DNA of 64,000 bases from an uncultured Myxococcales bacterium (GCA_964454015.1 CAYVQF010000003.1:127057-191056), one strand, 5' to 3'. Positions 28,919 through 63,955 are shown, numbered from the stretch's first letter. The notes: generated by a model not told the origin, from the sequence alone. Numbers and translations: made by a program.

Positions 28919-31900
28919 TCACTTGGTGGGGGTGTCGAGCCAGGTCCAGCCGCCGTCACGGAGGGCGGTGTCGATGTGGCGGAGGTAGTCGAGGACTTCG
29001 CGCAGCTTGGCCTGGAGGGCGTCTTGGTCGCCACTGTTCTGGGTGGCGGTGCGGACGATGGGGATGAGGGTCCTCTCGATGATGGCGACTTGCTGTGCGA
29101 GCAGCTCTTCAATGCCAGCCGGTGGTGGCGTGGTGACGTTGAGGGCGATCTGTGGATTGGCGAGCTCGTTCACCATGCCAGTGAGGCTCTGGAGGGCTTG
29201 CGGCAGGCTGTTCTGCATGCCTTGGCGCAGGTTGACGATTTCGTCACCGATCTGGGAGATCGCGCCAGAGACGCGGGCCACGGGGTCGTCCTCCTTGCCG
29301 CCCATGACCTTGATGCGCCGGAAATCGTTTTTGATCTGCTCCCAGCGGGTCTGTTGCTGTGGCGTCAGTTGGTGGGTGAGCTCTCTGAGTTTGAGGAGGT
29401 TGGCTTCGGCTCCATTGGTGAGGGTCTGGGCCTCGGCGGTGTAGTGTTCGTCGATGAGGCTTTGGACCTCTTGCGGGGTCATGGCGGCGACGACCTTCTC
29501 GGTGATTTTGTTCATGTTGCGGTAGGAGCCCTGGAGTTGGAAGCGGGGCTCGGTGCGATAAGCGTCGTCCATGGATGCGCTGGCGATGTAGGCGAGGTTG
29601 ACCTGGAGGAGCTGGGCCTGGATGTGGAAGAGGTGCTTGAAGATCGTCACGATTTCGGCGATTTCGACGCTCGAATAGCCGTGGACGAGGTCAGTGGAGG
29701 CGACGTCTTCGCCCTGGGCCATGGCGATGAGTTTGTAGATGTCGTTGCTGTCGCGGGTGGCCAGTGGTGCGAGGACTTGGTTCGAGGTGAGCGCGTTTTC
29801 GATATAGCTGAGGGCGAAGAGGTCGTCGCGTCCTTGGAGGATGTCTCCGAGGTTGTAGGTGTCGGCGCGGTTGGCGAGCATGTCGGGGATTTGAAATTTT
29901 TCCCCGGCTTCGGTGTAGGGGTTGCCCGCCATGACCACGCAGAATTTTTTCCCGCGGAAGTCGTAGGTTTTGGTTCTTCCTTGGAAGACGCCCTCAATTT
30001 TGCGTTGGGCGTCACAGAGGGAGATGAACTTTTGGAGGAGCTCGGGGTGGGTGTGCTGGATGTCGTCGAGATAGAGCATGACGTTGTTGCCCATCTCGAG
30101 GGCCAAATTGATTTTTTCCACCTCTTGCCTGGCTGTTGCGTTGGGGGCTTCGGCGGGGTCGAGGGAGCGGACGGCGTGGCCGAGGGCGGGGCCGTTGATT
30201 TTCATGAAGATGAAGCCGAGGCGGTTGCCGACGTACTCCATGAGGGTGGTTTTTCCGTAGCCCGGTGGTGAGATCAGGAGGAGGAGGCCCATGAGGTCGG
30301 TGCGTTTGCCTTCGCCAGCGGCCCCGATTTGTTTGGCCAGGTTGTTGCCGATGAGCGGCAAGTAGACGTCATTGATGAGTCGGTTACGGACGAAGGAGGT
30401 CATGACGTTGGGGGCGAAGTCGTCAAGGCGCACGCGTTCGCGGAAGCGCTGCAGGAGTTTGGTGCGCAGTTGTCGATAGCTGCGGTAACCCGGCACCCAT
30501 TCTTGGCGGAAGCGTTCGAGGCGCTGGTAGAAGTCGTCGAGGCGTAGGGTCAAGGTGCGGTTGACGATGCGGTGGTGGTTGCCAATGAGCCCTTGGACCT
30601 CGGTCTGGAGGCGTGCGCTGGAGACCTCCATGGTGAGGCGATCCCGGGCGAGCATGACGAGGGTGGCTTCGTCGGTGGCGTCGCGTGGTTGCTCGGGGTG
30701 GTTGGCGGCGAAGGCGTCGAGCCATGCTCTGGCGACGGAGAATTGGGTGGCGGGTTGGGCGCTCAAAGCGGCGAGGTCATCGTCGAAGGCCTGTTGTTGG
30801 GCCGAGGTGCGGAGGTAGTCCAGGAAGGCCGCGCCGAGGCGCTGAGCGTCGCTGCTGATGGGGAAGCGAGGTTGTTGGGCGCTCCCGATTTGTTCAAAGA
30901 GATACCAGGCGGCGAGGTTTCTTTGTTGGGCGTCGGCTTGCAGCGCTGCGTCCTGGAAGAAGTGCTCCAGGTGTTGGCTGAGTTGGTTGACGAAGCGTTG
31001 GTGTTCGGGGCGGTTGGCGAAGGATTGACGCAGGCGAAAGAGGCTGAGGGCGTGGCGATGGACTTGTTCTTTGGGGAAGTCCGGGCTGGCGTAGGCCCAG
31101 AAGAGTGCCGCCCAGGCGCGGCTCTGCGGCGGGTAGCGCAAGAGTCCAGCGCCGTGGCGCATGGTCAGAACTTTGTCGAGGATGAGGGCGGTGTCGTGGT
31201 CGTGGACCCCGCGTTCGTAGGCTTCGTCAAAGCGGTTGGCGGCGAATTCTCTGACAAGTCCGAGGAGTCCTTCGGGCGCGGCCATGGCAGCGGAGAGGCT
31301 TTCGAGGCTGAGTCCTTGGCGGCGCTCTTCGGCGGCGGCGATGATCTCGGCACACAGGAACTCGGCGCGGTAGACCTGGTCGGATTCGGAGATGATGTTA
31401 TGTCCCCAGAATGGCAGCGTGCGGGCGAAGTCCTGGTCTTCGACGGGGGCGTAGAATTCGGTGCCGTTGATGTGAATGGCCATCGTGGTCTGGCCTTCGT
31501 GTTCCCGGGGCACCATGGAGACTTCGATGGGTTGGGTGTTGACTGCGAAGCGGTGGCGTCCGAGCTTGATGAGTGCTTGGCCCTCTTCGTAAAGATCGCG
31601 ACGGTCGCGCAGGGTGCGCAGGGCGTCTTGGCGCAGTTTTTTGGCCTGGCTGCGGACTTCTTCAGCCTTGAGAGTGTCGTCGATGTCCTCGAGGTGCTGC
31701 GCCACTTGGTGCAGCTTGTGGATCATGGGATCGGCGGCGTAGTAGGCGTTGAGTTCGTCTTCAGTCTGGATGGCCTTGAGGCGTCTTTGCGCGCCTTCGA
31801 GGATGCGTTTGGCCGCGCTCATGAGGTTGGTGGCGCGTCGGTTGCGTTCATCGACGAGGGACTGTTTGCGCGCCGTGATGGCGTCGCGCACCTCATCCCG

Positions 31901-34156
31901 TTTCAAGGCGAGGTCAGCGGTGAACTCATGGAGCTCGCCGAAGCGGGCTTCGAGGTCTTCGAGTTGGAGGAGGAGGCGGGTCAGCTCCTCATCGCATCGC
32001 TGTGGGGTGTCACAGAGGGCGAGGGATGACTGTACGCTTTGGCCGAAGAGTTTGAAGTGGGCTGCGAACTCGGCCCGGTTTTCCAGGCTGAGGAGTTGTT
32101 GGTGGCGGCTGGTGATGAGGGCGCGGACGCGGTTTATCTGGGAGAAGACCTCAGCGACCTGCTCCAAGATCTGGGTGCGTAGGGTGGGATCTGGCATTTC
32201 GAGGCCATTGATGACCTCGATGAGTAGCTGTAGTCCTTGGGCGAGGGTGTCCAATTTCTCAGCAGGTGCCTTGAGCTTGTTGGCCTTTTGGATTTGATCG
32301 AGATCAGCGCCGAGGGCATCGATTTGTTTTCGCAGGGGGGTGAATGCTTGCCCGGCGAGGAGGAATTGGACGCATGCTTTGCCGACGTTGTCTGCGTAGC
32401 CGACGAGTTCACGCTCGAGTTTGTCGAGGGCGTCGCGGTCGATGTTGCGGACTTCGCGCAGGGTGATGAGGTGTCCGCGTTGGTTGCGCAGGGCGGTCAT
32501 GGTTTCGAGGAAGCGATCGATCTGGTTCCATTGGGTGGGATCCAGGCCGCGGAGGAGGGTGCGCTGGCTCTCCTGGGCGGCGGCGAGGGCTTGGGCGGCG
32601 GCTTGGGCGAGGCGCAGCACTTTCTCGAACTCATCGATGACTTGTTCGGTGGTGCGTCTGATTTCGAGGAGGCTGTCGCGGAAGGCGATTTCTGGATGTC
32701 CCAGCCAGTCGTAGGTGTCGAGGACGCGGTTGGTGAAGGCGATGAGGTCTTCGAAGGTGCGGCGTGAAGGTTTGGCTGCCTGTACCATCCTTTGTACGGT
32801 GAAGGCATCGGAGATGCCCCGGACGAGGTCGGCATTTCCAATTTTGGCCAGGAATCCGCCGCGGTTAGGTTGGCGGGCGGCTTCTTCGGCGCTGACGAAG
32901 GGTGTTTGCCAGACTTGCACGTTGTGGGTGCGGGTGGGTTCATCGCTGGTGTTGCGGAAGACGATCATTTTGCCGTCTTCGAAGATGGAGTAGCCGTTGC
33001 CAACGATAGGGGTTTGGATTTCTTTTCTGACGAGGTTGTAGGGGTAGAGGAAGTAGGTGCCTTCGTGTTCGCGATGGAAGACGTAGAGGACGTCTTCACC
33101 GTTGGGTGAGCGGATGGCCCTCTTGAAGCGCAATCCTGTGGTGTCGGCGTCGAAGACTTTGTAGTCACCCGTTTGGAGGTAGTAGCCTCCGGGGAAGATG
33201 ATGCCGTGGTCTTCGGGGAGTTGGACGCAGGCTTGTCCGATGGCGTCTTGCCGAACGGCTTCGGCAGTGCGGGTGTTGAAGATGAAGTGTCGGGTGATGC
33301 TTTCGCGGTAGGGCGTGACTTTGAGGAGGATGAGGGCGCCGAGTTTGGCGTAGTGGAAGGGAGCGTCGTCGAGGGACTGGTTGGGATCATCGACGAGCTC
33401 GGCATAGACGCCTTCGCCGCTTTCCGTGTTGTTCTCTACTTTTATGGTGAGGTCACCGCCGACGGTCTCGACGAAGACTTCGTTGAGGATGTTGACATGG
33501 GGGTGGCGTCCTCGGACGTAATTTTCAGGCGTGGTTTCCTGCCAGGTGAAGTCGTGGGCAGGGGGGAAGACATGGTCGCGTTCGCCGCGGTTGTCGACGT
33601 AGGTGATTTGTCCTTGGCTGTCGAAAGTCCAGCGAAAGACTTTGATATCTGGTGAGCTGGTCGAGATCTGGAAGACAGCCAGGAGGTAGCCGTCGTTGAC
33701 GCGGAGTTGTTGGAGCTTGGAGTCTTTGTAGTACTCGCGCAGTTCTTTGAAGTCGCGTTGGAAGCGGGCGTCGACGAGGAAGCCATCGACGGCGCTGATG
33801 TCGATTTCGGCGAGATCGAAACCTTCAGGCGTCGTTGCGAAGCCATGGAGGGAGAAGATGTCGCGGACAGAGGTCTCGGTCTTGAGGCCCATGAAGACGT
33901 TGTAGCCGAGGAGCAGATTGCCTTTGACGTTGACGATGTCGCGGAGCACGCAGTTGTGTTCGGTGCGGACGCGTTCTCTGCCGATACGCTCCAGCTCGGT
34001 GCCGCCAAAGTTCTGCTGTCGGTTCTTGTTGAGTTGTTCGGCGTGCTCTGCCAAGCGACGGGCTTGTTGGACGAGCCGTTGGTGGATGACGTCATAGTTG
34101 CCGAGATCGATGTCGGTGCTGTGCTCATTCTGGGTTGCGTTTGCTTTGTCCACCAT
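28919..34156 (-). CDS. giant (1745 aa) protein with a single MoxR/dynein-type AAA+ module near its C-terminus (hypothetical)
   Basis: Walker A ISPPGYGKTTLME (aa ~1296). Walker B VMLYLDDIQH. MoxR-like sensor region VVMAGNPYTEAGEKFQIPDMLANRADTYNL (nt ~29750-30300). The N-terminal 420 aa are beta-rich, and about 800 aa of Q/L/R-rich helical or coiled-coil sequence follow. No TM or signal peptide. Confidence 0.85.
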   Translation of the reverse strand: MVDKANATQNEHSTDIDLGNYDVIHQRLVQQARRLAEHAEQLNKNRQQNFGGTELERIGRERVRTEHNCVLRDIVNVKGNLLLGYNVFMGLKTETSVRDIFSLHGFATTPEGFDLAEIDISAVDGFLVDARFQRDFKELREYYKDSKLQQLRVNDGYLLAVFQISTSSPDIKVFRWTFDSQGQITYVDNRGERDHVFPPAHDFTWQETTPENYVRGRHPHVNILNEVFVETVGGDLTIKVENNTESGEGVYAELVDDPNQSLDDAPFHYAKLGALILLKVTPYRESITRHFIFNTRTAEAVRQDAIGQACVQLPEDHGIIFPGGYYLQTGDYKVFDADTTGLRFKRAIRSPNGEDVLYVFHREHEGTYFLYPYNLVRKEIQTPIVGNGYSIFEDGKMIVFRNTSDEPTRTHNVQVWQTPFVSAEEAARQPNRGGFLAKIGNADLVRGISDAFTVQRMVQAAKPSRRTFEDLIAFTNRVLDTYDWLGHPEIAFRDSLLEIRRTTEQVIDEFEKVLRLAQAAAQALAAAQESQRTLLRGLDPTQWNQIDRFLETMTALRNQRGHLITLREVRNIDRDALDKLERELVGYADNVGKACVQFLLAGQAFTPLRKQIDALGADLDQIQKANKLKAPAEKLDTLAQGLQLLIEVINGLEMPDPTLRTQILEQVAEVFSQINRVRALITSRHQQLLSLENRAEFAAHFKLFGQSVQSSLALCDTPQRCDEELTRLLLQLEDLEARFGELHEFTADLALKRDEVRDAITARKQSLVDERNRRATNLMSAAKRILEGAQRRLKAIQTEDELNAYYAADPMIHKLHQVAQHLEDIDDTLKAEEVRSQAKKLRQDALRTLRDRRDLYEEGQALIKLGRHRFAVNTQPIEVSMVPREHEGQTTMAIHINGTEFYAPVEDQDFARTLPFWGHNIISESDQVYRAEFLCAEIIAAAEERRQGLSLESLSAAMAAPEGLLGLVREFAANRFDEAYERGVHDHDTALILDKVLTMRHGAGLLRYPPQSRAWAALFWAYASPDFPKEQVHRHALSLFRLRQSFANRPEHQRFVNQLSQHLEHFFQDAALQADAQQRNLAAWYLFEQIGSAQQPRFPISSDAQRLGAAFLDYLRTSAQQQAFDDDLAALSAQPATQFSVARAWLDAFAANHPEQPRDATDEATLVMLARDRLTMEVSSARLQTEVQGLIGNHHRIVNRTLTLRLDDFYQRLERFRQEWVPGYRSYRQLRTKLLQRFRERVRLDDFAPNVMTSFVRNRLINDVYLPLIGNNLAKQIGAAGEGKRTDLMGLLLLISPPGYGKTTLMEYVGNRLGFIFMKINGPALGHAVRSLDPAEAPNATARQEVEKINLALEMGNNVMLYLDDIQHTHPELLQKFISLCDAQRKIEGVFQGRTKTYDFRGKKFCVVMAGNPYTEAGEKFQIPDMLANRADTYNLGDILQGRDDLFALSYIENALTSNQVLAPLATRDSNDIYKLIAMAQGEDVASTDLVHGYSSVEIAEIVTIFKHLFHIQAQLLQVNLAYIASASMDDAYRTEPRFQLQGSYRNMNKITEKVVAAMTPQEVQSLIDEHYTAEAQTLTNGAEANLLKLRELTHQLTPQQQTRWEQIKNDFRRIKVMGGKEDDPVARVSGAISQIGDEIVNLRQGMQNSLPQALQSLTGMVNELANPQIALNVTTPPPAGIEELLAQQVAIIERTLIPIVRTATQNSGDQDALQAKLREVLDYLRHIDTALRDGGWTWLDTPTK

Positions 34157-53170: not shown

Positions 53171-56100
53171 TCAAGGGCTCGGGGTGTGGGCCCAGTGCGT
53201 CAGGAGCGCTTGCAGACGCTCGGGGCTGACCCTCTCGGGACAGTGGCGTTGCGCTGCGACCAAGGTGGCGTCGAAGGCTTCGCGGTCGGCGGTGCGCGTG
53301 AAAAGTATCAGGCTGCGCAGCAGGGCCGTCGGGTGGGTGGGCTCGAAGAGCAGCGCCCGGGCCAAAAAGGTCTGGGCGGCGGGCCAGTCTCCAGTCGCGA
53401 GATAGAGGTGGGCGAGATAGGCGTGATGGTCTGCGGCGTCTCGGCGGCTGCGCTCGGGCATGTGCGCGGGGTCAGCGCCGCGGTAGCTTTCGACGAGGCG
53501 GTTCATGGTGCTCAGGGCGTCGTTGGCGAGCCCTGCTTGCCACTGGCTCTGCCCCAAGACGAAGGCGACGTCGAGATCACCTGGAGCTTGATTGCGCAGG
53601 AGGGCCAGCAGTGGCACGGCCTCATCGGGCTGGTTTTGGTGGTCGAGGGCATGCTGGGCCGCCGCGAAGAGGCAGCGTCGCCACGGACGGGTGCCAGGCG
53701 TCAGGGTGCGCGCAAAGGCCAGGGCCAGGCGCATGGCTTCGGTGTGATCGCCCAAGGTGAGGGCAATGTTCCACCCCACTTCAAAGAGGGTCTCATTCAC
53801 CGCGAGGGTGCGGCAGGCCCACTGGTGGATGCTCTGCGCTTTGAGCCAGCGCCCCTGACGGCAGAGGACCTGCAGAACCTGAACGATATGGGTCTCTAGT
53901 CGGGCTTCCACGGCCAGCCGCGCCGGTCCCTCCTCCAGGGCGATCTGCTGGGCCAGGAGCAACAGATGCAGTTCGTCGCGCACGTCAGCCATGGGAGCGG
54001 GCGGGGCGGTCGCTGCCTGCGGCGAGGGCTCAGGCCTAGGGCTAGGTTTGGGATCCACGTCCGTAATTGGAGGCGCGTCGCCGCTGTCCTCGTGCTCGGC
54101 CGCGAGGAGGCCATGGAGGCGGCGCAGCGCGGCGACGTCTCCATGGGTGGTGTAGGCGACGGTGAGGCGATCGGCTATCTCCGGGACCTGGGGAAAGCGC
54201 CGAAAGAGCGCCTCCAAAGTGGCTAGCGCCGGTGCGGGTAGCATCTCCAGGCAGGGCTCGAGGGCGACGAGGAGGCGTTGGCCGTAGGGTTCATCTTCGG
54301 GCTCGAGGGCATCGAGGGCGCTGCCGATGGCCGCCAGCAGCAGGTGGGGGTTCTTGGTCTCGGTGGCGATGAGCTCGACCAGGGCCAGGTAGCGCTCCTC
54401 GTAGGGGTTGAGCGCCAGGGCGTCGACGAGGAGGAGGGCGGCGTCCGCAGCGAGGTCGAGCTGGTGGTAGGCGACGGCGGCCATGCGGTCGAGGAGGCGC
54501 TCGATGTCGTAGGGTGAGGGGGCGGAGCAGAGGCGGCTGTGCTGGAGCGCCGCTTGATAGACGCGGTATAGGGCGTCATAGCGGCGGGCGCGGTCCAGGT
54601 CGCGCTCGAGGCGGTTGAAGAGGTCGAGGTCGGTGGGGTTGTCGATGAAGGCTTCGACGCGCAAGTGCAGGGCTTTGCCCTCACTGTGAAGGCGGCGCGC
54701 GTAAAGATCGGCCAGGACCAAACGGATGTGTCCGCTAGCCGGTCCGGCTGGGGTCTGGCGGAGCACCTGCTCGAGGGCTTCGGCGGTCTGCGGCCAAGCC
54801 TGCGTGGGATCGACGAGCGCGTTGGAGAGATGCTTGGCCACCGCAGCGATGAGGGCCTGGCGATTTTCTTCATCGGGGATGGCTGAAGCCGCGTCGACCA
54901 GCGTGTTGATCACCTCGGGACCGTGTTCGGTCTGGGCCAGCGCGTCTGAGACGGAGGCGGTGGTGCCACTGGGTAGGTGCGCCGCAGGGGGCTGCGGGGC
55001 GACGGCTTTGGGCAGGCGTGGTGACGAGATGGGCAGCAATTCGCTGGGCGTGTCGATGTAGGCGTTGAATTTGGCGAGGCGAGCGCCCGCCGCGACGACG
55101 ACGGGCGCTTGGGGAAAGAGGGCGTTGGCGCTGTCGAAGCACTGGCGCGCCTTGCTGTGGTCGCCTCGCTGGGTGGCGATGTCGACGCCGATCAACGCCG
55201 CCATGCAGGCCTGGGCTGGCGTCGCGCCGCCGATGAGCATCTCGATGGCGGCGGCCTTGTCGGTGTAGGCCGCGGCAGGCGAGAGGAGGGCGGCGAGTCG
55301 AGGCCCCATGGGCCCGAGGGGGGCGAAGGACTCGGCAGCGACACCGCGGCCGCCGCGGAGAAGGAAGAAGTCGCGCAGGGGTTGAAGCAGGTGTGCCTGG
55401 GCGTCGTTGTCGTCGAGGGCGGCGAGGATCTTGAGCCAGTCGGCGTCGGTGACGCGCGGGATGGCCAGGTGAAAGGCCGCCGCAAAACAGGCAGGTGCCA
55501 CCCTGAGGCTGTGATGGAGGAGCTGTAACAGGGGCATGAGCAAGGGCTCTTCACCCAGGAGCGCCAGGGCTCGATAGCGCTGGTGGATATCGAGTGTGGC
55601 CGTCGCCTCGAGCTTGGGGTAGAGGCGCTCGAGTCCGATGACGCCCTGGGTGTTGAAGGCGGTGGCTTCAATCATCCAGGAGAGGTGGGCAGCATCGCTG
55701 GGGAGGGCTTTGCGGAGATCGCTGACGCGGGTGGCGGGGTCGTTGTCAGCGAGCAGGGTGTAGAGCCAACGCAAGAGACCGAGGGCTTGAAGGAGGGCAG
55801 GGTCTGTGGCCAGCTCCATACGGAGGCCGATGACGTCGGCGGCTTCGCGGTAGGCCTTGGCTGCCACCCAGGCGCGCTGCGCCTGGATGCGCAAGAGGGC
55901 CGCGAGCTGGTCGGCGCCGCTCTCGGCGAGGGTGAGGAGCGCCTTGGCCGCCGCCGCTGGTGCGCGTTCAGACTGGATCTGGGCGGCGATGACCAAGAGC
56001 GCTGTGGCTTCGGGCTCATCACGCACGGCGCGCGCTGCGTTGCGGAGGGTGGAGGTCGGGAGCTGCACGAAGGGATAGAGATCGAGGGCGTAGAGGGTGA

Positions 56101-56737
56101 GCAGGAGTGGGACGTCGGCGCCGACCGGGAAGGGATCGGGAGGGGGCGGCGGTGAGCCGACGAGGGCACCGAGAAAGAGCAAGGAGATGGCTTCGTCCCA
56201 TGCCTGCTCGGCGAGACAATGCTGCCAGCGTTCGGCGTAGGTTGGGAAAGGGGGCGTGCCCGGGGCGGCGTGCTCGGTCAGTGGCCACAAGGGCAGGGTC
56301 GGGTCGATGGCCAGGGCGGCGCGCGCGAGACGGTCAGCCACTTCGGGACGGCGTCTGCGCAGCAGCAGGTCTGCGAAGACGAGCTGGAGGATAGCTTGGG
56401 CCTCGTCGTCGGCCTTGTGATGCTGAGAGAGTGCGCTGACGGCGAAGTCGGCGCGCTCTTGGTCGCTGTGTCCGGAGAGGAGAAAGGCGGCGCTTCTGCA
56501 GCCAGGCAGGCCTTTGCTTGCGCCGGACAAGAATGCGCGTCGCGCCGCCGTTGGCTGGCCGAGAACCAAGAGCAAGTAGGCAAAGGACGCGTCGGGGCCG
56601 TGGGACTGCTCGTGGGCGAGGAGCGCTTCAGCCAAGAGAGCCGACTCCAGGGGCAGGGCGTCTCTGGATGACTCGGCCCAAGCTGGGATCGATGGCGCTG
56701 ATGTGGGCGGTGGGGCTGCGGTCATGGCGTGATGCAT
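53171..56737 (-). CDS. very large TPR/helical-repeat protein (1188 aa, hypothetical)
   Basis: Continuous A/L-rich helical-repeat composition. No TM and no enzymatic motif. Confidence 0.65.
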   Translation of the reverse strand: MHHAMTAAPPPTSAPSIPAWAESSRDALPLESALLAEALLAHEQSHGPDASFAYLLLVLGQPTAARRAFLSGASKGLPGCRSAAFLLSGHSDQERADFAVSALSQHHKADDEAQAILQLVFADLLLRRRRPEVADRLARAALAIDPTLPLWPLTEHAAPGTPPFPTYAERWQHCLAEQAWDEAISLLFLGALVGSPPPPPDPFPVGADVPLLLTLYALDLYPFVQLPTSTLRNAARAVRDEPEATALLVIAAQIQSERAPAAAAKALLTLAESGADQLAALLRIQAQRAWVAAKAYREAADVIGLRMELATDPALLQALGLLRWLYTLLADNDPATRVSDLRKALPSDAAHLSWMIEATAFNTQGVIGLERLYPKLEATATLDIHQRYRALALLGEEPLLMPLLQLLHHSLRVAPACFAAAFHLAIPRVTDADWLKILAALDDNDAQAHLLQPLRDFFLLRGGRGVAAESFAPLGPMGPRLAALLSPAAAYTDKAAAIEMLIGGATPAQACMAALIGVDIATQRGDHSKARQCFDSANALFPQAPVVVAAGARLAKFNAYIDTPSELLPISSPRLPKAVAPQPPAAHLPSGTTASVSDALAQTEHGPEVINTLVDAASAIPDEENRQALIAAVAKHLSNALVDPTQAWPQTAEALEQVLRQTPAGPASGHIRLVLADLYARRLHSEGKALHLRVEAFIDNPTDLDLFNRLERDLDRARRYDALYRVYQAALQHSRLCSAPSPYDIERLLDRMAAVAYHQLDLAADAALLLVDALALNPYEERYLALVELIATETKNPHLLLAAIGSALDALEPEDEPYGQRLLVALEPCLEMLPAPALATLEALFRRFPQVPEIADRLTVAYTTHGDVAALRRLHGLLAAEHEDSGDAPPITDVDPKPSPRPEPSPQAATAPPAPMADVRDELHLLLLAQQIALEEGPARLAVEARLETHIVQVLQVLCRQGRWLKAQSIHQWACRTLAVNETLFEVGWNIALTLGDHTEAMRLALAFARTLTPGTRPWRRCLFAAAQHALDHQNQPDEAVPLLALLRNQAPGDLDVAFVLGQSQWQAGLANDALSTMNRLVESYRGADPAHMPERSRRDAADHHAYLAHLYLATGDWPAAQTFLARALLFEPTHPTALLRSLILFTRTADREAFDATLVAAQRHCPERVSPERLQALLTHWAHTPSP

Positions 56738-56853
56738 TGGCGAGGCCGGGCGCGAATGCAGCGCCGTGCCCCTGGGCTCATCCCTTGGCGCCTCAACTTA
56801 ACGCAGAAGCATGCGCGTGGCCAACGGCAGCGATTGCGCGCCGCAGGCGGCGC

Positions 56854-57441
56854 TCAAGGGGGGCGGCGCTCGACGACGAAGGAGGTGGGCGCTGTGGTGC
56901 TTAGGAGCATTGGCGCCATGGCTTTCATGAGCTTGCCCGGCTGGGCATCGCTGGCGATGCCCAGCTCTGCCCCGACTTCGACCTCTAGGCGCAAAAGGGC
57001 CAGCTCAGCTTGGGTGTGCTGGAAAGCATAGGCACCCGCGCCGCCGGGGTAGGTGAGGAGCAGCTTGAGGACGAGAGCACCCGTGGCGCCAGGTGTGGCG
57101 TCCAGGCGCCATTCGAAGGTGATTGGGTTGAGGCGTTGGCTGTCGCGGTGGAGCTGTAGCGGTGCGAAGACCGTGGGGAGCAGGCGCTCGACCACCATGG
57201 CCTGTTCCATGGGGTCGAGGCGGTGGTTGCGGTCCAGGTCGGCGAGGTGACGCAACAAGGCCGCTTCTTGGGGCGGCACGCGAAAGACCACGAGCATCTC
57301 CGTGTGCTCAGGGTTCACCTGGAGCAAGACCTGGAAATCGGCCTCGATGTCGTGCGCCGCAGCGGTGGAAACGCCGACGACTGCGCAGAGGACGCAGAGG
57401 GCGGCGAGGACGGGCGGGGGTCGCATGGCATCAGCGTCCAA
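56854..57441 (-). CDS. secreted hypothetical protein
   Basis: Signal peptide MRPPPVLAALCVLCAVVGVSTAAAHD. It overlaps the stop of the upstream giant lipoprotein gene by 11 nt, suggesting co-transcription. Confidence 0.4.
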   Translation of the reverse strand: MDADAMRPPPVLAALCVLCAVVGVSTAAAHDIEADFQVLLQVNPEHTEMLVVFRVPPQEAALLRHLADLDRNHRLDPMEQAMVVERLLPTVFAPLQLHRDSQRLNPITFEWRLDATPGATGALVLKLLLTYPGGAGAYAFQHTQAELALLRLEVEVGAELGIASDAQPGKLMKAMAPMLLSTTAPTSFVVERRPP

Positions 57442-60400
57442 AGGCAGGGTTTTCGAAGAGGGAGCGGAGATTGCGCCGCTGCATGGAGGCTTTGGCCGGG
57501 GTGGCGGGGTTCATAGCCTGCCCGCCACCTTGGCCTGCTTCGGTGCCTTCACAACCATTCTCGCCGGGGGCGATGAGGTTGGGGTTGTGCGGGCAGCCGT
57601 CGAGGTGATTGGGCACACCATCGCCGTCGATGTCTGCGGCCACGCCCATGGATTCGAAGCCCGCGCCGTCGACATCGACCCAGACGGGGTTGGTCATGGC
57701 CCACGGCGTCACCGGGTAGACCTGGTCCGGCTGGAAGATGTCGAGCGGCGAGGCGCCAAAGCCAAAGGAAGCGCCAATGGCGCCGACGGCTTCCGTGATG
57801 ACGATGGGTGGGACTTCGACGGGAGGAACCACAGGGAAGAGGCTCTGGCTGCCGACGACCTCGGCGACGACGAAAGTGTCTCCTTCGAAGTTGAAGGAAC
57901 GCTGGCTGCGCCACTCGCCGGCCTCGTTGCGGCCCGTCAAGGGCTCGCGGTAGAGCTCGATGCCGTTGGCGTAGACCACGAGGAGGTCGACCTCGATCCA
58001 CTTCGGGGCTTGAACTCGCACGTCGATGACGACGTCGCCGTTGGCGGCGACGGTGCTTTCACCGACGGCTGCGCCGTTGACGAAGAGCTCGAGGAAGGGG
58101 CCGTTGGTCATGATGACGCGCTGGTTTTGGATGGCTTCGACCACGTCGATGGGCTGAAGTGAGGCGACGCTCTTGTGGCCGACACGGAGGAAGTTGCGTG
58201 GGAAACCAGGCTCTTGGGTTAGAGGCTTGTGGCTGTCGCTGTTGGCGACGCCCGTGATGATGTGGCCGAGATTGATGAGGTTGAACCAGTCGTTGACCAC
58301 CCCCGGGAAGGCAGCCTCGCCACTGCTGTTGGTGAGGACGGCACCTGGACGGGGATAGTTGGCCGGGAGCTCACCTGGCGCCAGGGGGACGCACTTCTGC
58401 GTTGGGGGCAGCTCTGGGAGGCGCTCATCGCCGGTGACACATTGGGCCGGGTCGTAGGCACGGACGCTGTGAATTTCCCACAATATTTTGCCGTTGAGGA
58501 TTTCCATGGCGTCGAAATCGAGGCTGAAGTTGGAGACGGCGAAGCCGCTGCCGTCGGCATAGGGGCGGCCATTCTCATAGGCGACGAAGGCGGGGCCAAC
58601 GGGTAGGCCCAGACCCAGGCTGGTACCCGTGCCCAGCTTCTGGGGGATGGGCATACCGTCGAGGTTGGAGAGGGCGAACTGGTCAAAGTAACCCAAGACC
58701 ATGTCGCGGGGGTGGTTGACTTGGACGATGGTGCGCTCAGGTCCGAGCGCACCGCGCCGCCGCAGGTCGGCAAAGATTTCCCCCGGGGGCCGATCAGACC
58801 AGGGGAAGGAGCCGTGAAGGGTTTGTTCTGGCCAGTAGTCGAGGGGGTAGGCGTTGAAGTGGCCGCCCTCGAGGGTGGTCAGCTCGATGCCGCGCACGGT
58901 GGTGATGAAATCGTTCAGGCCCAGCTCGGCGATGACGTGGCTCAGGTCGGTGATGATGTTGTGGTCCGTTGCGGCGACGAACTCGACGCCTTCGCCAGCC
59001 AAGGCGCCGATCTGGCGGTGCGGTGGCGACGAGGAGTCGATGGAGGCGCTGGTGTGAAGGTGGAGATCGGCCGAGATGTAGCCCGTGGTGTCGACGACGC
59101 GCTCGAGCGTCGCTGTGACGTCGGCGATCTGGTTGGATTTGAGGTTGAGCTCTTGGGCCATGACCAGGTTGTACTCAACGCCGCGGCTGACGTAGATGCG
59201 ATAGGGTTCATCGGCCGAGGGGCGCACCTTAAGGCTGACCCGACCGCGGGCATCGGTGTAGGCGGTTTTCTCGATGTAGCGGCGGGTGCTGGGATCGTTG
59301 GGGTCGTCGGGGACGAAGTCGGTCACTCTCTCGGGCTCGCCGGAGCGGGAGTCATAGAGGAATTCCGGTGGGCTCATGCCAGGGAAATGGCGGTGGGTCC
59401 CGACCACGGTGACCTTGGCCGGGAGCGGTACGCCGCGTTGGTCCGTGACCAAGACGTTGAGCGTGGCCGAGGACGGCAGATCCAGGACGGTGAAGCTACG
59501 ATCGCCTGGGCTGACGCTGACTGCACGGGGTGCGCCGAGATCGCGGTCCGGGGCGACGGCGCGCATCACGTAACAGCCGCTTTCGACTTTGGCTTTGAAG
59601 CGCCCACCGTTGCGGGTGATCATCTGGGTGTAGTGTTTCCACTGGCTGGGGTCGAGGCGCCCGGCTTCATTGAAATCACCATCGCCGAGGGCGCAGGCCC
59701 GGTCGGGGTCGGCGGCACGGTAGGCCAGGACCCAGGCGTCATCGACGGTGGTGCCCAGGGTGCGATCGATGAGGCGTCCCTCGAGGTGGCCCAAGCTGAG
59801 ATCTTGGCGCCACAGGTTCTGGCGGATATCGAAGACCACGTCTTGAATGGAGGCGGCGTCGCCGTCGCCGACCATGACGTATTTGCTATAGCTGAAGGTT
59901 TCACCTTCTTTGAGAGATGCCGGTGCGAGGGCATAGAAGGCACCCGTGAAAGAGGAGAAATAGAAGGGGACCAACATGCTCCAGGGCTTGACGCTGTCGA
60001 AGCCGACGGCGGCGTAGCGATTGCGGTTGGCCCAGGCATAGTTGTTGGCACCCGGGTGGACCATGACGCCGTAGGAGACGCCTTGGTCGGTGGTCGTGGC
60101 GAGGTATTCCACGGGCAGTCCGGGGATCGCCGGGAGCTCTGGGGGCGTCTGGTAGAGGCCCTCGAGGGTGAGGCGCAGATCGAGGCCGCCGCCCGGGGCG
60201 AAAGTGTCATTGCCAGCGGAGAAGAGGAAGACGTCACCCATGGGGACGGGGAAGACGCCCTCGCTGCCGCCGAGGAGGGTGCCAATCGAGGATTCAAAGG
60301 GGAGTCTGACGGTCCTGCTGCTGAGGTTGGTGACGCCGACGCTGACCTTGACGTAGCTGGCGTTGGGTGGCAGCTCATAATCGATATAGAAGCTCAAAAC

Positions 60401-61645
60401 AGGTGTCGGCTGCCCCTGGGAGCAGTAGGGGAGGCAGAGGACGCCGTCACCGTGATCCGGCAGGGGGTTGCAGGCACAGGCTTCGGCGTCGTAAGTGCCG
60501 CGTTGGCAGGGGTAGGTGTTGCCGTTTTTGCCGGTGAGGAAGCCTTCGGCCGGGCAGGCAGGATCGCACAGCGGCCCGGGGTCGTCGGGGCAGACTTCGG
60601 CGAGGCGGGTCACCCCATTGAGGTCGGTGCAGCGACAGCGTTCGGGATCGTCTGGGTCGGGGATGCATACGCGACCGAGGGTGCTGGGACAGTTCTCGGT
60701 ACAGAAAGGTGTCGATGCCTCAACACAGGGATCAGGGGTGCTGAGGGGGTCGAAGCAGGCACAGAGCCCAGGTTGGTTCGGGTCGGGCACGCAGACCCGT
60801 CCGCCTTCACTGGGGCAATTGGGGTCGCAGAATGGGCCCTCACCGAGGGCGCAATTCGTCGAGATTTGCTGGTGGTTGACACAGAGGCAGCTCTCGGGGT
60901 CGAAGACGCCCGGTGTACAGGGGATGTCGCTCTCGGGGATGCGCCAGTTCCAACCCTGTACGGTGCCTGCTGCGTTGGTACGGGGCACGGCTTTGCACTG
61001 GGGCGAGCAGAGGACGCCGCCAGGGGTGGCGCAGGCCTGCTCGGCGGGGAGGGCGGTGCAGCTCCCTTGCTCCCAGTGGCCGAGGGTGCAGGTGAGTTGC
61101 TGCGAGACCGTGTCGGCTGGGCTGTCGCCGTAGGCGTTGATGAGCAGCTCGTTGAGGCCCTTGACCATGGTGAGGAACTCCCCGCCGTAGCCAGAGATGC
61201 GCAGGCGCGCCGGCTGGCCGTTGCGGCCGTCGTTGAGGATTTCCGCTTTCTTGGGGTTCAAGGCTTGGAGAAAGAAGGCCGGGAACATCTCGCCGAACAT
61301 GTCCTGGCCTTGGCCGCCGAAGGCGCCGCCGCGCTCGGAGGCGCGCCGGAGATCCATGTCGATGATGCCGCCGCCGTAGATGCCAAAGCCACGGGCAAAG
61401 CCGATGTCCTGGACGATGACCCGGATCTTGTCGTTCTCGAGCATGTAGTCGCCCACCTCACCGAGGGCACGTTTGCCTCCGATGAGCTGTTCGCGGCGGG
61501 TGATCTGGTAAGCCCTGGCTTGACCGCCATCGCCGACGACGTCGTCGTCTTGGATGCAGCCGCTCAAGGTCGGGCTCAACCCGATGGCGCTGAGGATGAA
61601 GAGTCCAAGCACGAACCCCTTGGCGGGTATAGCCTGTGGCGTCAT
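57431..61645 (-). CDS. giant (1404 aa) secreted lipoprotein: EGF-like Cys-rich repeats + PHP-family metal-dependent phosphoesterase domain + TSP3-like Ca-binding motif
   Basis: Lipobox LSPTLSGC. Repeated CPxxxGRVCxPDPxxPxxCxC modules (aa ~185-400). PHP hallmarks ADLHLHTSASIDS ... VAATDHN ... NHP (nt ~58650-59075). C-terminal DIDGDGVPNHLDGCPHNPN. Confidence 0.8.
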   Translation of the reverse strand: MTPQAIPAKGFVLGLFILSAIGLSPTLSGCIQDDDVVGDGGQARAYQITRREQLIGGKRALGEVGDYMLENDKIRVIVQDIGFARGFGIYGGGIIDMDLRRASERGGAFGGQGQDMFGEMFPAFFLQALNPKKAEILNDGRNGQPARLRISGYGGEFLTMVKGLNELLINAYGDSPADTVSQQLTCTLGHWEQGSCTALPAEQACATPGGVLCSPQCKAVPRTNAAGTVQGWNWRIPESDIPCTPGVFDPESCLCVNHQQISTNCALGEGPFCDPNCPSEGGRVCVPDPNQPGLCACFDPLSTPDPCVEASTPFCTENCPSTLGRVCIPDPDDPERCRCTDLNGVTRLAEVCPDDPGPLCDPACPAEGFLTGKNGNTYPCQRGTYDAEACACNPLPDHGDGVLCLPYCSQGQPTPVLSFYIDYELPPNASYVKVSVGVTNLSSRTVRLPFESSIGTLLGGSEGVFPVPMGDVFLFSAGNDTFAPGGGLDLRLTLEGLYQTPPELPAIPGLPVEYLATTTDQGVSYGVMVHPGANNYAWANRNRYAAVGFDSVKPWSMLVPFYFSSFTGAFYALAPASLKEGETFSYSKYVMVGDGDAASIQDVVFDIRQNLWRQDLSLGHLEGRLIDRTLGTTVDDAWVLAYRAADPDRACALGDGDFNEAGRLDPSQWKHYTQMITRNGGRFKAKVESGCYVMRAVAPDRDLGAPRAVSVSPGDRSFTVLDLPSSATLNVLVTDQRGVPLPAKVTVVGTHRHFPGMSPPEFLYDSRSGEPERVTDFVPDDPNDPSTRRYIEKTAYTDARGRVSLKVRPSADEPYRIYVSRGVEYNLVMAQELNLKSNQIADVTATLERVVDTTGYISADLHLHTSASIDSSSPPHRQIGALAGEGVEFVAATDHNIITDLSHVIAELGLNDFITTVRGIELTTLEGGHFNAYPLDYWPEQTLHGSFPWSDRPPGEIFADLRRRGALGPERTIVQVNHPRDMVLGYFDQFALSNLDGMPIPQKLGTGTSLGLGLPVGPAFVAYENGRPYADGSGFAVSNFSLDFDAMEILNGKILWEIHSVRAYDPAQCVTGDERLPELPPTQKCVPLAPGELPANYPRPGAVLTNSSGEAAFPGVVNDWFNLINLGHIITGVANSDSHKPLTQEPGFPRNFLRVGHKSVASLQPIDVVEAIQNQRVIMTNGPFLELFVNGAAVGESTVAANGDVVIDVRVQAPKWIEVDLLVVYANGIELYREPLTGRNEAGEWRSQRSFNFEGDTFVVAEVVGSQSLFPVVPPVEVPPIVITEAVGAIGASFGFGASPLDIFQPDQVYPVTPWAMTNPVWVDVDGAGFESMGVAADIDGDGVPNHLDGCPHNPNLIAPGENGCEGTEAGQGGGQAMNPATPAKASMQRRNLRSLFENPAFGR

Positions 61646-61661
61646 TCTTTATGCCTCCGAG

Positions 61662-62903
61662 TCACCAGACCACTTGGACGAGGGCCTCGATGAGGTCGTT
61701 GTCGACGCCAGCGCTGCCTTCTTCTTGGGTGACGGTGTAGTTGAGCTTGAGCTCAACGGGCAGCGCTTCGAGTCGGTAGGCGACCCCGATGGTGTGGTAG
61801 ATCAGGAGGTCGTCGACGGCGAGCTCCGTGTCGTCTTTGAAGGGGTCGAGGTAGGCAAAGCGGTAGCCGACCTGGAAGCGGTAGTCGGGGATGGGCAGGC
61901 GGTAGGCGATCTGGGCGAGGATGCCGATGGTGTCGCGCTTGGCCTCACCGGCGCCAGGGTACTCGCGGGTGTTCCACAAGAGCTGGGCCAGCGCGTCGAC
62001 GCCGTAGGCCTTGAGCTGCAGGTCGACCTGCCAAGAGAGATCTTCTTCGTCGAGTTGGTTGGGCAGGGTGCCCTCGGTGCGCTGGTTGTAGCTGAGCCCG
62101 CCACCGAAGACCAAGAAGGAGTCCGGTTGATAGAGGCCGAGGAGCTGGTTGCGCAGATGGAACTCGAGGCGGCCAAAGTAGGCCAGGTGGTTGTTGTCGT
62201 TGCGGGTCGAGGAGACCGTGTTGCCGTTGGTGATGGCGGCGTGATAGGTGAAGCCGACGGGGCCAAAGTCGATGACGTCCGAGAGCAAGCTCAGGCCGGC
62301 TTGACGCGAGGGGGTGAAGCCGGCGTTGCCCGGGCGCTGGATGCCTTCACCGGGGCGCACGCCGCTGGAGACCACCGAGGGGCGGACGAAGGTGAGGTCG
62401 GCAGCGGACTCGGTGGCTTCGAGATCGAAAGGCGGCTTGTACTGACCCACCCGCACTTTGAAGAAGTCGGCGAAGCGATACTCGCCGTAGGCGTCCTTGA
62501 GCTCGACCCGTTGGCTGCCAACGGTGTCGTTGGCGTTGGTGCGGACGTCGCCGGCGCCGTCCAGGGCGAGGCGCAGCTCCAGCTTGTCGAGGTAATTGAT
62601 TTTGACACCCGTACGGGCGTCGAGCATGGCGAAGCCGTTGTTTTGGCCGATGAAGTCCGGCGCGTTGTCGCCCTCGGCGCCGACCCAGATGAAGCCCGTG
62701 CGGACGTAACCGTAGAGGGTGGCCGCCCAATCGCCGACGGTGAAGGTGAGGGGCGGGTTCTCCGAGGGTCCGCGGGCCCAGTCGATGTCCTGTGCTGCTG
62801 TGGTGCGCGGCAGCACCATGGTGCCGCCGAGGCAGAGCAGGAGGGTGAAGGAGAGCAGGGCGGGGCCCAAGAAGGCAGAAGCAGAGAATCCAGGTCTGTT
62901 CAT
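61662..62903 (-). CDS. outer-membrane porin-like beta-barrel protein
   Basis: Start trimmed to MNRPGFSASAFLGPALLSFTLLLCLGGTMVLPRTTAAQD (signal). Amphipathic beta-strand pattern throughout. C-terminal LVQVVW. Confidence 0.6.
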   Translation of the reverse strand: MNRPGFSASAFLGPALLSFTLLLCLGGTMVLPRTTAAQDIDWARGPSENPPLTFTVGDWAATLYGYVRTGFIWVGAEGDNAPDFIGQNNGFAMLDARTGVKINYLDKLELRLALDGAGDVRTNANDTVGSQRVELKDAYGEYRFADFFKVRVGQYKPPFDLEATESAADLTFVRPSVVSSGVRPGEGIQRPGNAGFTPSRQAGLSLLSDVIDFGPVGFTYHAAITNGNTVSSTRNDNNHLAYFGRLEFHLRNQLLGLYQPDSFLVFGGGLSYNQRTEGTLPNQLDEEDLSWQVDLQLKAYGVDALAQLLWNTREYPGAGEAKRDTIGILAQIAYRLPIPDYRFQVGYRFAYLDPFKDDTELAVDDLLIYHTIGVAYRLEALPVELKLNYTVTQEEGSAGVDNDLIEALVQVVW

Positions 62904-63115
62904 CGGTTCCAGACTCCTCGACAGAAGGATCGACGACGAAAATCTGAGGGTGTTGACCTCGAGAGGCGGGTTGACGCAAGGCGGCGGCATGGCTATGCGC
63001 TGTGGGAGGCGCAGCCGCCTTTGGACAGGGCGGACACTAACCTATATGCCCGGTCGGAGCAAACGCAACGGCGCAAGGGGTGTGCGGGCCTTTTAGTGCC
63101 CCTGGAGGTGACGCG

Positions 63116-63955
63116 ATGGCTAGTGATTTTCTCGATGCAGACGCGCTTTGCGCCGTCCTCGAGTGGGTGCGTGAGGCCGGTGCGATGGCGCGAGGCTTTC
63201 GCCAGAGCGGCGCGTATTCCGTGGTGGAGAAGGGCGGCGGTGCCGGTCCGGTGACCGAGGCCGACGAGGCGATCAGCGCCTTTCTCATGCAAGCCCTGCA
63301 GGGGGCCTTTCCAAAAGACACGGTGGTCAGCGAGGAGAGCCCCGCTGCGACCCAGTGGCAGCGGCGCACTTGGCTCATCGATCCCATTGACGGCACCCTG
63401 GATTTCGTCCGCGGTGGGGAGGAATTCGCCGTCATGGTGGGGCTGGTGGTGGCGGGCGCGCCGCGCTTCGGGGTGGTCTATCAACCCATGCTGCATCGCC
63501 TCTATTGGGGTGGCGCTGGCTTGGGGGCGTGGTGCGCGACGCCAAGTGGCACCGTGGCGCTGCGGGTTTCGACCTGCGCTGACTTGTCGGCTGCGGTGAT
63601 GGTGAAATCGCGGCACCACCCCAGCAGCGCCGTCGACGACTTGGGTGCCGAGCTCGGCATCGCGAGGGTGCAAGAGATGGGTTCCATGGGGCTCAAGGTC
63701 GCCGCCGTGGCCGAGGGGCGGGCCGATGTCTATGTGAACCTGTCGGGCAAGTCCTCGCTGTGGGATGTGGCCGGTCCGCAGGCCATTCTCGAGGCGGCAG
63801 GCGGTCGGCTCAGCGGCTTGGAGGCAGGGACCCCGGCCTACGTGCCGGCGCCGCTGGCGATAGCGCACCCGGTGGTGGCGAGCAATGGCCAAGTGCATGA
63901 CCAGGTTCAGCGCGGCGTGGCTCGCGTTTTCGGTCGCAGCGGGGGCTTGCGCTGA
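63116..63955 (+). CDS. inositol-monophosphatase/CysQ family 3'(2'),5'-bisphosphate nucleotidase-like phosphatase
   Basis: Family motifs EES...WLIDPIDGTLDFVRG and WDVAGPQAILEAAGG. GGAGG RBS 6 nt upstream of the ATG. Confidence 0.8.
   Translation: MASDFLDADALCAVLEWVREAGAMARGFRQSGAYSVVEKGGGAGPVTEADEAISAFLMQALQGAFPKDTVVSEESPAATQWQRRTWLIDPIDGTLDFVRGGEEFAVMVGLVVAGAPRFGVVYQPMLHRLYWGGAGLGAWCATPSGTVALRVSTCADLSAAVMVKSRHHPSSAVDDLGAELGIARVQEMGSMGLKVAAVAEGRADVYVNLSGKSSLWDVAGPQAILEAAGGRLSGLEAGTPAYVPAPLAIAHPVVASNGQVHDQVQRGVARVFGRSGGLR

Follow-up and report, generated by a model that had tools for sequence, protein, structure and literature searches.

We describe a locus on a 64,000-nucleotide stretch of DNA from an uncultured Myxococcales bacterium (GCA_964454015.1, CAYVQF010000003.1:127057-191056), which is referred to as the window throughout. 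The locus is a three-gene operon, conserved across the Myxococcota, that encodes a porin-like barrel, a lipoprotein hydrolase of 1404 residues, and a small protein with an EF-hand-like loop. The lipoprotein, our pivotal element, belongs to a known sort of exported hydrolase, the CehA/McbA family, of which it represents a so far uncharacterised version spread throughout the phylum. That it is an exported, lipid-anchored, multidomain hydrolase of the PHP type, encoded in a conserved porin operon, we consider highly probable. The complete statement favoured here, which adds a mechanism and a phosphoester substrate to this identity, holds with a probability of roughly 0.55; the hydrolysis of phosphoesters on a polymeric substrate, taken by itself, is put forward tentatively. 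An earlier note, made from the sequence alone, had drawn attention to this gene, and its claims are taken up where the respective results are given. The coordinates of all features are collected in Table 1.

The open reading frame that the earlier note had delineated proved to be correct, and its product is identical to protein P0001, recorded from public assemblies. Since 126 homologues were found, the top one with 50% identity over 95-98% of the length, the gene is regarded as real. Approximately 100 further homologues span about 65% of the protein, with E-values between 1e-130 and 1e-230. In a scan with one genome per species, relatives are encoded in 380 stretches, the best 80 of which stem nearly all from Myxococcota (Myxococcales, Polyangiaceae, Nannocystis, Labilithrix, and Bradymonadia). 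At least one carrier, Lujinxingia vulgaris TMQ2 (locus L030), is a cultured organism. Against the NCBIfam model NF038032 (CehA/McbA family metallohydrolase), the protein scores 136.9 bits at a cutoff of 80 (E = 9.5e-40). The match falls into two stretches, and the better one aligns residues 1118-1324 with model positions 158-315. A phmmer search of the whole protein against the PDB sequences yielded zero matches. Several orthologues from metagenome-assembled genomes are annotated either as 'CehA/McbA family metallohydrolase' or as 'carboxypeptidase regulatory-like domain-containing protein'. Hence, the suspicion of an uncharacterised type is borne out insofar as no member of the clade has been studied, but automatic annotation pipelines already recognise the family as such and have a name for it. 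Antisense open reading frames of up to 993 residues, among them 58712-61693(+) and 57302-58162(+), overlap the gene. They are absent from the public gene calls, both on the matching contig and at homologous loci, and are most likely non-genic, i.e., stop-poor reverse frames typical of high-GC DNA.

In the alignment with homologues, the hydrolase domain is the best-conserved portion of the protein. The PHP-type assignment made in the earlier note is upheld by the NF038032 match and by the presence of both motifs it had named, DLHLHT (residues 860-865) and ATDHN (residues 892-896). The domain is larger than the segment of residues 840-1010 to which it had been confined and spans about residues 855-1325. 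AlphaFold2 models were built with family alignments. The model of residues 616-1404 reached a mean predicted local distance difference test (pLDDT) score of 90.8 and a predicted template modelling (pTM) score of 0.90. In this model, beta and alpha elements alternate in the hydrolase domain, and a beta-sandwich is embedded in it at residues ~1177-1265. When the C-terminal model was compared with the PDB by Foldseek, Ig-like and pilin matches alone were returned, so that this search is uninformative on the PHP fold.

Within alignments of 39 to 81 divergent members, D860, H862, H864, S868, D870, D1137, H1139, and R1150 are invariant, while E885, D894, H895, E921, H929, N977, and H978 are conserved to at least 90%. 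From this pattern we infer that nine conserved His, Asp, and Glu residues (H862, H864, D870, H895, E921, H929, H978, D1137, and H1139) occupy the canonical metal-ligand positions of PHP enzymes. Two conserved arginines, R980 and R1150, lie near these proposed ligands. An alignment by hhalign against E. coli YcdX pairs H862, H864, D870, and H895 with the ligands H7, H9, H15, and H40, respectively (E = 2e-4). A profile search of solved structures gave weak matches to the PHP enzymes 4gc3, 1m65, 3e38, and 2anu, which cover motifs I-II. The Pfam PHP model matches 16 of the 39 family members at E <= 0.01, with a best E-value of 1e-5.

Two groups of known enzymes are informative for comparison. With the cytoplasmic PHP phosphoesterases (YcdX, L-histidinol-phosphate phosphatase 4gc3, TM0559 2anu, and Bacteroides 3e38) the protein has the ligand pattern HxH, D/H, DH, E, H, H, DxH in common. 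In addition, 3e38, a two-domain PHP protein according to its PDB title, carries a beta-sandwich after the PHP domain, as does the window protein. Sequence similarity to these enzymes, however, is limited to approximately 40-50 residues, and the domain described here comprises about 470 residues with very long loop insertions. It also differs in being part of an exported protein with a lipid anchor and in having binding and spacer domains fused to it. CehA and McbA are the closer relatives in that the hydrolase domain scores above the curated cutoff of their family, and in that they likewise are exported and possess a PHP-like domain, with essential histidines. They are proteins of about 770-790 residues whose genes reside on catabolic plasmids or transposons in Proteobacteria and whose substrates are xenobiotic carbamates. 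The window protein, in contrast, is a chromosomal lipoprotein of 1404 residues from the Myxococcota, whose gene shares its operon with those for a porin and an EF-hand protein. Besides the hydrolase domain, it contains a supersandwich, two Ig-like domains, a cysteine-rich insertion, and a thrombospondin type 3 (TSP3) loop. McbA was located in the periplasm by experiment, and signal peptides have been reported for CehA (review PMC8292978). Thus, the earlier note's premise of a normally cytoplasmic PHP domain does not apply to the CehA/McbA subfamily, to which the protein belongs by its score above the NF038032 cutoff.

The reading of the protein as an exported lipoprotein is well founded. The N-terminus, MTPQAIPAKGFVLGLFILSAIGLSPTLSGC, contains the lipobox L-S-G-C after a hydrophobic core of 14 residues. 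The lipobox agrees with the pattern [LVI][ASTVI][GAS]C, and Cys30, which is invariant in 39 diverse homologues, is the predicted lipidation site and would be a substrate of Lgt and LspA. The 28 cysteines of the insertion described below, with 14 potential disulfides, fit an oxidising compartment and hence support export. For Myxococcus xanthus, lipoprotein sorting has been described in which Lys at position +2 directs to the inner membrane and Ala at position +7 to the matrix (PMC3222651). The window protein has Ile and Val, respectively, at these positions, and among 200 family members Lys +2 occurs in three and Ala +7 in 16. Owing to the rarity of both residues, signals for inner-membrane retention and for export to the matrix are disfavoured. 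Since the lipobox cysteine is invariant and no inner-membrane retention signal is present, the outer membrane is the default prediction, and the hydrolase is most likely anchored there. An M. xanthus orthologue with proteomic localisation was sought, and only proteins derived from metagenome-assembled genomes or unnamed proteins came up.

All three genes of the operon are read from the minus strand, in the order porin, hydrolase, small protein. The gap between porin and hydrolase measures 16 nucleotides and includes GGAGG. The earlier note had noticed the adjoining porin-like gene but placed the hydrolase upstream of it; as the genes lie on the minus strand, it is the porin that is located upstream (5'). 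Likewise, a gene for a small secreted protein is indeed found at the 3' end, but the overlap claimed for it depends on an alternative TTG start, which would produce an overlap of 11 nucleotides. The ATG, from which the public assembly calls the gene, is situated 4 nucleotides past the hydrolase stop codon. A promoter and terminator scan of 56600..63200 gave nothing above shuffle expectation.

This gene order is kept in distant relatives across the Myxococcota. In 74 fetched loci, approximately 95% of those with enough upstream sequence, the hydrolase gene directly follows a gene for a porin homologue, and iterated searches with hidden Markov models detected a small-protein homologue directly downstream in 51-52 loci. 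The porin of the window carries a signal peptide and the C-terminal aromatic beta-signal ...VQVVW. It matches Pfam Porin_O_P (PF07396) with 25.4 bits at a gathering score of 20.9, as do 30 of 33 porin orthologues (best E = 3e-14). At four loci (L019, L021, L051, and L064) neither a porin nor a small-protein gene is detectable, although at least 2.8 kb of upstream sequence is available. P0115, a distant paralogue, is not accompanied by a porin gene. MXAN_0562 of M. xanthus, annotated as Porin_O_P, was considered as a porin of this cassette and is probably not one, because it adjoins an HtpX homologue.

The small protein matches no Pfam family over its full length. Its signal peptide ends in ...AAA followed by His25 (numbering of the 190-residue product), which is invariant and directly follows a conserved alanine; A24, D63, and E74 are conserved to at least 90%. 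Should signal peptidase cut after this alanine, His25 would become the mature N-terminus, and an N-terminal histidine would fit metal binding. The protein contains a single EF-hand-like loop of 12 residues, DLDRNHRLDPME (DxDxDG...E), rather than a paired EF-hand domain. The family profile matches calbindin and calmodulin at this loop alone (E = 3e-6), and 11 of 37 members match EF-hand_5. One member shows a very weak match to DUF1007 (E = 0.13).

Outside the catalytic domain, the lipoprotein is built from several modules. Residues 31-625 were modelled with moderate confidence (pLDDT 77), their core exceeding 90. This part harbours the two halves of a galactose-mutarotase-like beta-supersandwich, for which Foldseek against the PDB returned the YidC P1 domain, N-terminal domains of GH36 enzymes, and aldose 1-epimerases, at E-values of ~1e-5 to 1e-3. 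Its first half exhibits the residues D66, N71, D96, D98, R101, and D115, which are invariant in 39 divergent homologues. The following tandem of Ig-like domains has its top Foldseek matches in the PDB among CnaB-type pilin and adhesin domains (E 4e-9 to 1e-6). A profile search of the PDB matched a carboxypeptidase D regulatory domain in the same region, and PF13620 is present in 32 of 39 family members.

A thrombospondin-type calcium motif had been proposed for the C-terminus. The motif DIDGDGVPNHLDGCP, beginning at residue 1338, is present and is matched by Pfam TSP_3 (PF02412) with E = 2e-5, but its 24.6 bits stay just under the gathering score of 25. What the protein shares with thrombospondin is one type 3-like DxDxDG loop. 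Orthologues have several clear TSP_3 repeats (best E = 5.3e-15). The disordered tail ends in a family motif at residues 1389-1404 (57434-57480). Comparison of the C-termini of 110 homologues led to the consensus D[IV]R.[IL]F..F..H, to which many orthologues append a His-rich stretch (HGHDHGH, HSH, HAH). In the window, the motif reads RNLRSLFENPAFGR, with the R..LF core retained and the histidines missing. The motif could serve as a docking peptide or as a metal-handling tail.

The cysteine-rich modules, which the earlier note had described as EGF-like and as making up the N-terminal third, are present as 28 regularly spaced cysteines within residues 186-408. They do not constitute the N-terminal third but an insertion of about 240 residues, which sits in a loop of the supersandwich and is missing from the ~100 shorter homologues in the alignment. 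Four tandem six-cysteine modules of the form C-x7-C-x3-C-x(7-25)-C-x9-C-x-C start at residues 205, 265, 307, and 352 and are flanked by cysteine pairs; the exact motif CPxxxGRVCxPDPxxPxxCxC occurs only twice. Only about eight orthologues carry the insertion (among the aligned homologues P0002-P0008), and residues 261-340 are extra even in comparison with these. AlphaFold2 confidence for the insertion is low to moderate.

'EGF-like' describes the spacing only. In one register, the six cysteines with their C-x-C pair are spaced as in EGF domains, but no Pfam EGF profile matches at E <= 10, approximate PROSITE patterns for EGF are absent, and there were no EGF proteins among the matches in 1.84e9 representatives. 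Scans of the isolated insertion against Pfam and NCBIfam at E <= 10 returned noise only (CXCXC, E = 0.73; Trp_halogenase, E = 0.27). A phmmer search with the insertion against these 1.84 billion representative proteins gave five matches: three full-length orthologues, a fragment of an orthologue, and a small repeat protein from a public metagenome (P0122). The latter, lipoprotein-like and 193 residues long, is composed of three tandem copies of the module in the form GGCPLTGVxCxPxCPxSGxLPGGAPCTRGxFxxxxCxC, which shows that the module is not confined to the hydrolase family. From its sequence, the insertion is a rare, autonomous, disulfide-rich repeat, almost an orphan and distinct from EGF. 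It was gained by a small subclade including the window copy and probably serves as a stabilising or binding appendage outside the catalytic core. As a near-orphan disulfide repeat, it is of modest interest for protein evolution.

Two further genes border the operon (Table 1). The TPR gene downstream was considered as a member of the system and rejected, as it has no counterpart beside homologous operons and its sole tblastn match is the window's own contig. The divergent inositol-monophosphatase gene upstream is unsupported as a partner, having been seen at only four loci within the short flanks that were fetched. Over the whole window (1-64000), the GC skew of the plus strand is very strong, at +0.23, and ranges between 0.12 and 0.35 in every 2-kb bin, and nearly all credible genes are encoded on the C-rich strand. 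At third codon positions, minus-strand genes show a skew of about -0.5 (C over G), compared with +0.06 for the plus-strand gene 63080..63955, which points to a strand-specific bias beyond codon preference.

Table 1. Features of the hydrolase operon, its predicted protein domains, and other genes of the window. Residue numbers refer to the 1404-residue lipoprotein.
Feature	Residues	Coordinates	Strand	Description and basis
Porin-like gene, first of operon		61662..62903	-	Porin_O_P beta-barrel, 413 residues from ATG at 62903
Hydrolase gene, second of operon		57431..61645	-	1404-residue lipoprotein, multidomain CehA/McbA-family (PHP-type) metallohydrolase; open reading frame and NF038032
Signal peptide and lipobox LSGC	1-30	61556..61645	-	Cys30 as predicted lipidation site; read from sequence
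Beta-supersandwich, first half (galactose-mutarotase-like)	45-175	61121..61513	-	AlphaFold2 pLDDT mostly >88; Foldseek
Cysteine-rich insertion, lineage-specific	176-415	60401..61120	-	Cysteine spacing; gap in shorter homologues
Beta-supersandwich, second half	416-615	59801..60400	-	AlphaFold2 pLDDT 90-97; Foldseek
Two tandem Ig-like / transthyretin-like CarboxypepD_reg beta-sandwiches	616-850	59096..59800	-	AlphaFold2 pLDDT >93
Metallohydrolase domain, PHP type (CehA/McbA), with long inserted loops	855-1325	57671..59083	-	NF038032, conservation, AlphaFold2
TSP3-like calcium-binding loop, single copy, DIDGDGVPNHLD	1337-1356	57578..57637	-	Pfam TSP_3
Disordered Gly/Pro-rich tail	1357-1404	57434..57577	-	AlphaFold2 pLDDT <50
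Small secreted protein gene, third of operon		56854..57426	-	190 residues from ATG 57426, or 195 residues from TTG 57441
Ala/Leu-rich protein with C-terminal TPR repeats		53171..56737	-	1188 residues; immediately downstream of operon
Inositol-monophosphatase gene		63080..63955	+	Divergent, upstream of operon
1745-residue protein		28919-34156	-	DUF3686 ('ATPase involved in DNA repair', E = 1.6e-198), DUF7902, C-terminal AAA domain

For the function of the system we favour the following model. The putative substrate would be a phosphoester (mono- or diester) on a polymeric or glycan-bearing molecule, in the envelope or outside the cell. The supersandwich would hold it, perhaps in a binding site formed by the conserved cluster of acidic residues in this domain. 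In the hydrolase domain, H862, H864, E921, and D1137 would coordinate an alpha metal, E921, H929, and H978 a beta metal, and D870, H895, and H1139 a gamma metal, and this centre would activate a water molecule for cleavage of the ester bond. The co-transcribed barrel of the Porin_O_P type would pass the substrate or an anionic product across the outer membrane, and the small protein, with its invariant histidine and EF-hand loop, may act as a metal- or calcium-dependent accessory. A phosphoester is favoured because of the full set of metal ligands together with the conserved arginines, the carbohydrate-type binding domain, and a partner from an anion-porin family. As to the earlier proposal of a hydrolase complex at the cell surface or outside the cell, an envelope-located hydrolase system is a fair reading, since the coupling to the porin and the small protein is conserved across the phylum.

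Several observations weigh against this model, in part or as a whole. The Pfam PHP model (PF02811) matches residues 860-923 with 19.1 bits (E = 0.0017), below its gathering score of 26.4, and four of the nine ligands are aligned to a solved PHP enzyme, the other five following from the motif pattern. The only characterised enzymes of the best-matching family cleave carbamate esters, not phosphoesters; for the phosphodiesterase or nuclease chemistry suggested in the earlier note we thus rely on inference. The porin resembles OprP and OprO in its Porin_O_P matches, its signal peptide, and its aromatic beta-signal, but the family profile searched against solved structures at E <= 10 found no OprP or OprO chain, and phosphate selectivity is therefore not to be assumed. 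No phosphate-regulon genes were seen to be conserved near homologous loci. The small protein is absent at about one third of the loci, mostly in Polyangiaceae, Labilithrix, and unassigned Myxococcales. The hydrolase may be exposed either to the periplasm or at the cell surface. Literature searches on the family name and on Myxococcus combined with PHP found nothing, nor did they find experimental data for any member of the clade.

The same architecture and location could belong to an enzyme that, like CehA and McbA, hydrolyses carboxyl esters, carbamates, or amides, with a lipid, an acylated glycan, a secondary metabolite, or a peptidoglycan-linked group as natural ester candidates. This is a serious rival, since the characterised relatives cleave carbamate esters and a phosphate context is missing: CehA/McbA is the sole family matched above threshold, its characterised members split the ester bonds of carbaryl and oxamyl by means of histidines of the PHP-like domain, and the porin is not close to OprP and OprO. 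Carbamate pesticides, however, are recent xenobiotics, so that acting on them is probably a side reaction for which the family was recruited. Moreover, the complete set of nine metal-ligand positions and the conserved arginines are features of PHP phosphoesterases, as in the structures of YcdX and histidinol-phosphate phosphatase, and the partner barrel belongs to a Pfam family of anion and phosphate porins. On balance, we regard a non-phosphoester hydrolase as unlikely. A more specific reading takes up the earlier note's suggestion of extracellular DNA, polyphosphate, or nucleotides as targets: the enzyme might be a surface or extracellular nuclease, or a phosphodiesterase for nucleotides or polyphosphate, that feeds the cell with phosphate or nucleotides, e.g., during predation. 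The PHP domains of PolX and RNase AM are nucleases, and the occurrence of the family in predatory lineages (Myxococcales and Bradymonadia), the lipoprotein export, and the pairing with a Porin_O_P-family barrel are compatible with such a role. The similarity to PolX or RNase AM, however, is limited to the HxH motif, a nucleic-acid-binding domain was not detected in the protein, which has a supersandwich of carbohydrate type and spacers of Ig-like fold as its accessory domains, and no link to Pho regulation was seen. This specialised role is therefore judged distinctly improbable.

A third alternative is a mainly structural function. Complexes of porins and lipoproteins with structural roles are known (e.g., PMC11369160), and the Ig-like spacers, the calcium loop of TSP3 type, and the appendage rich in disulfides resemble parts of adhesins; the conserved C-terminal peptide, placed behind a disordered linker, could dock onto a partner. 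Porin and lipoprotein would then form an envelope complex that serves as a tether, plug, or adhesin, and the PHP domain would be a metal-binding scaffold instead of an enzyme acting on nutrients. Yet the canonical catalytic residues and metal ligands all show complete or almost complete conservation even between highly divergent members, as expected of an active enzyme, and the strongest conservation within the protein falls on the hydrolase domain. We consider this explanation very improbable and retain the exported PHP-type hydrolase with a tentative phosphoester substrate.

A bolder extension of the favoured model would unite the three proteins in a dedicated outer-membrane machine, found mainly in Myxococcota. 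The PHP enzyme, facing either the surface or the periplasm, would be docked on its own barrel, possibly via the conserved C-terminal peptide. It would degrade a polymer that carries phosphate (nucleic acid of prey, teichoic acid, or polyphosphate, for instance), the products being channelled through the barrel. The invariant histidine of the small protein and the His-rich tails of many orthologues would load metal into the enzyme outside the cytoplasm. We deem this scenario quite unlikely in its entirety; if true, it would represent a nutrient-acquisition module similar in logic to SusCD and made of unrelated parts.

Exported PHP-like hydrolases are frequent in annotations, and biochemically they are known from two pesticide hydrolases only. 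The locus described here is a phylum-wide operon version in the Myxococcota, many of which are predators, and it comes with its own porin and an accessory protein. It thereby offers a tangible setting for the search for the substrate that the CehA/McbA family acts on in nature. If that substrate is a phosphorylated polymer, the operon would stand for a new route of nutrient scavenging at the outer membrane.

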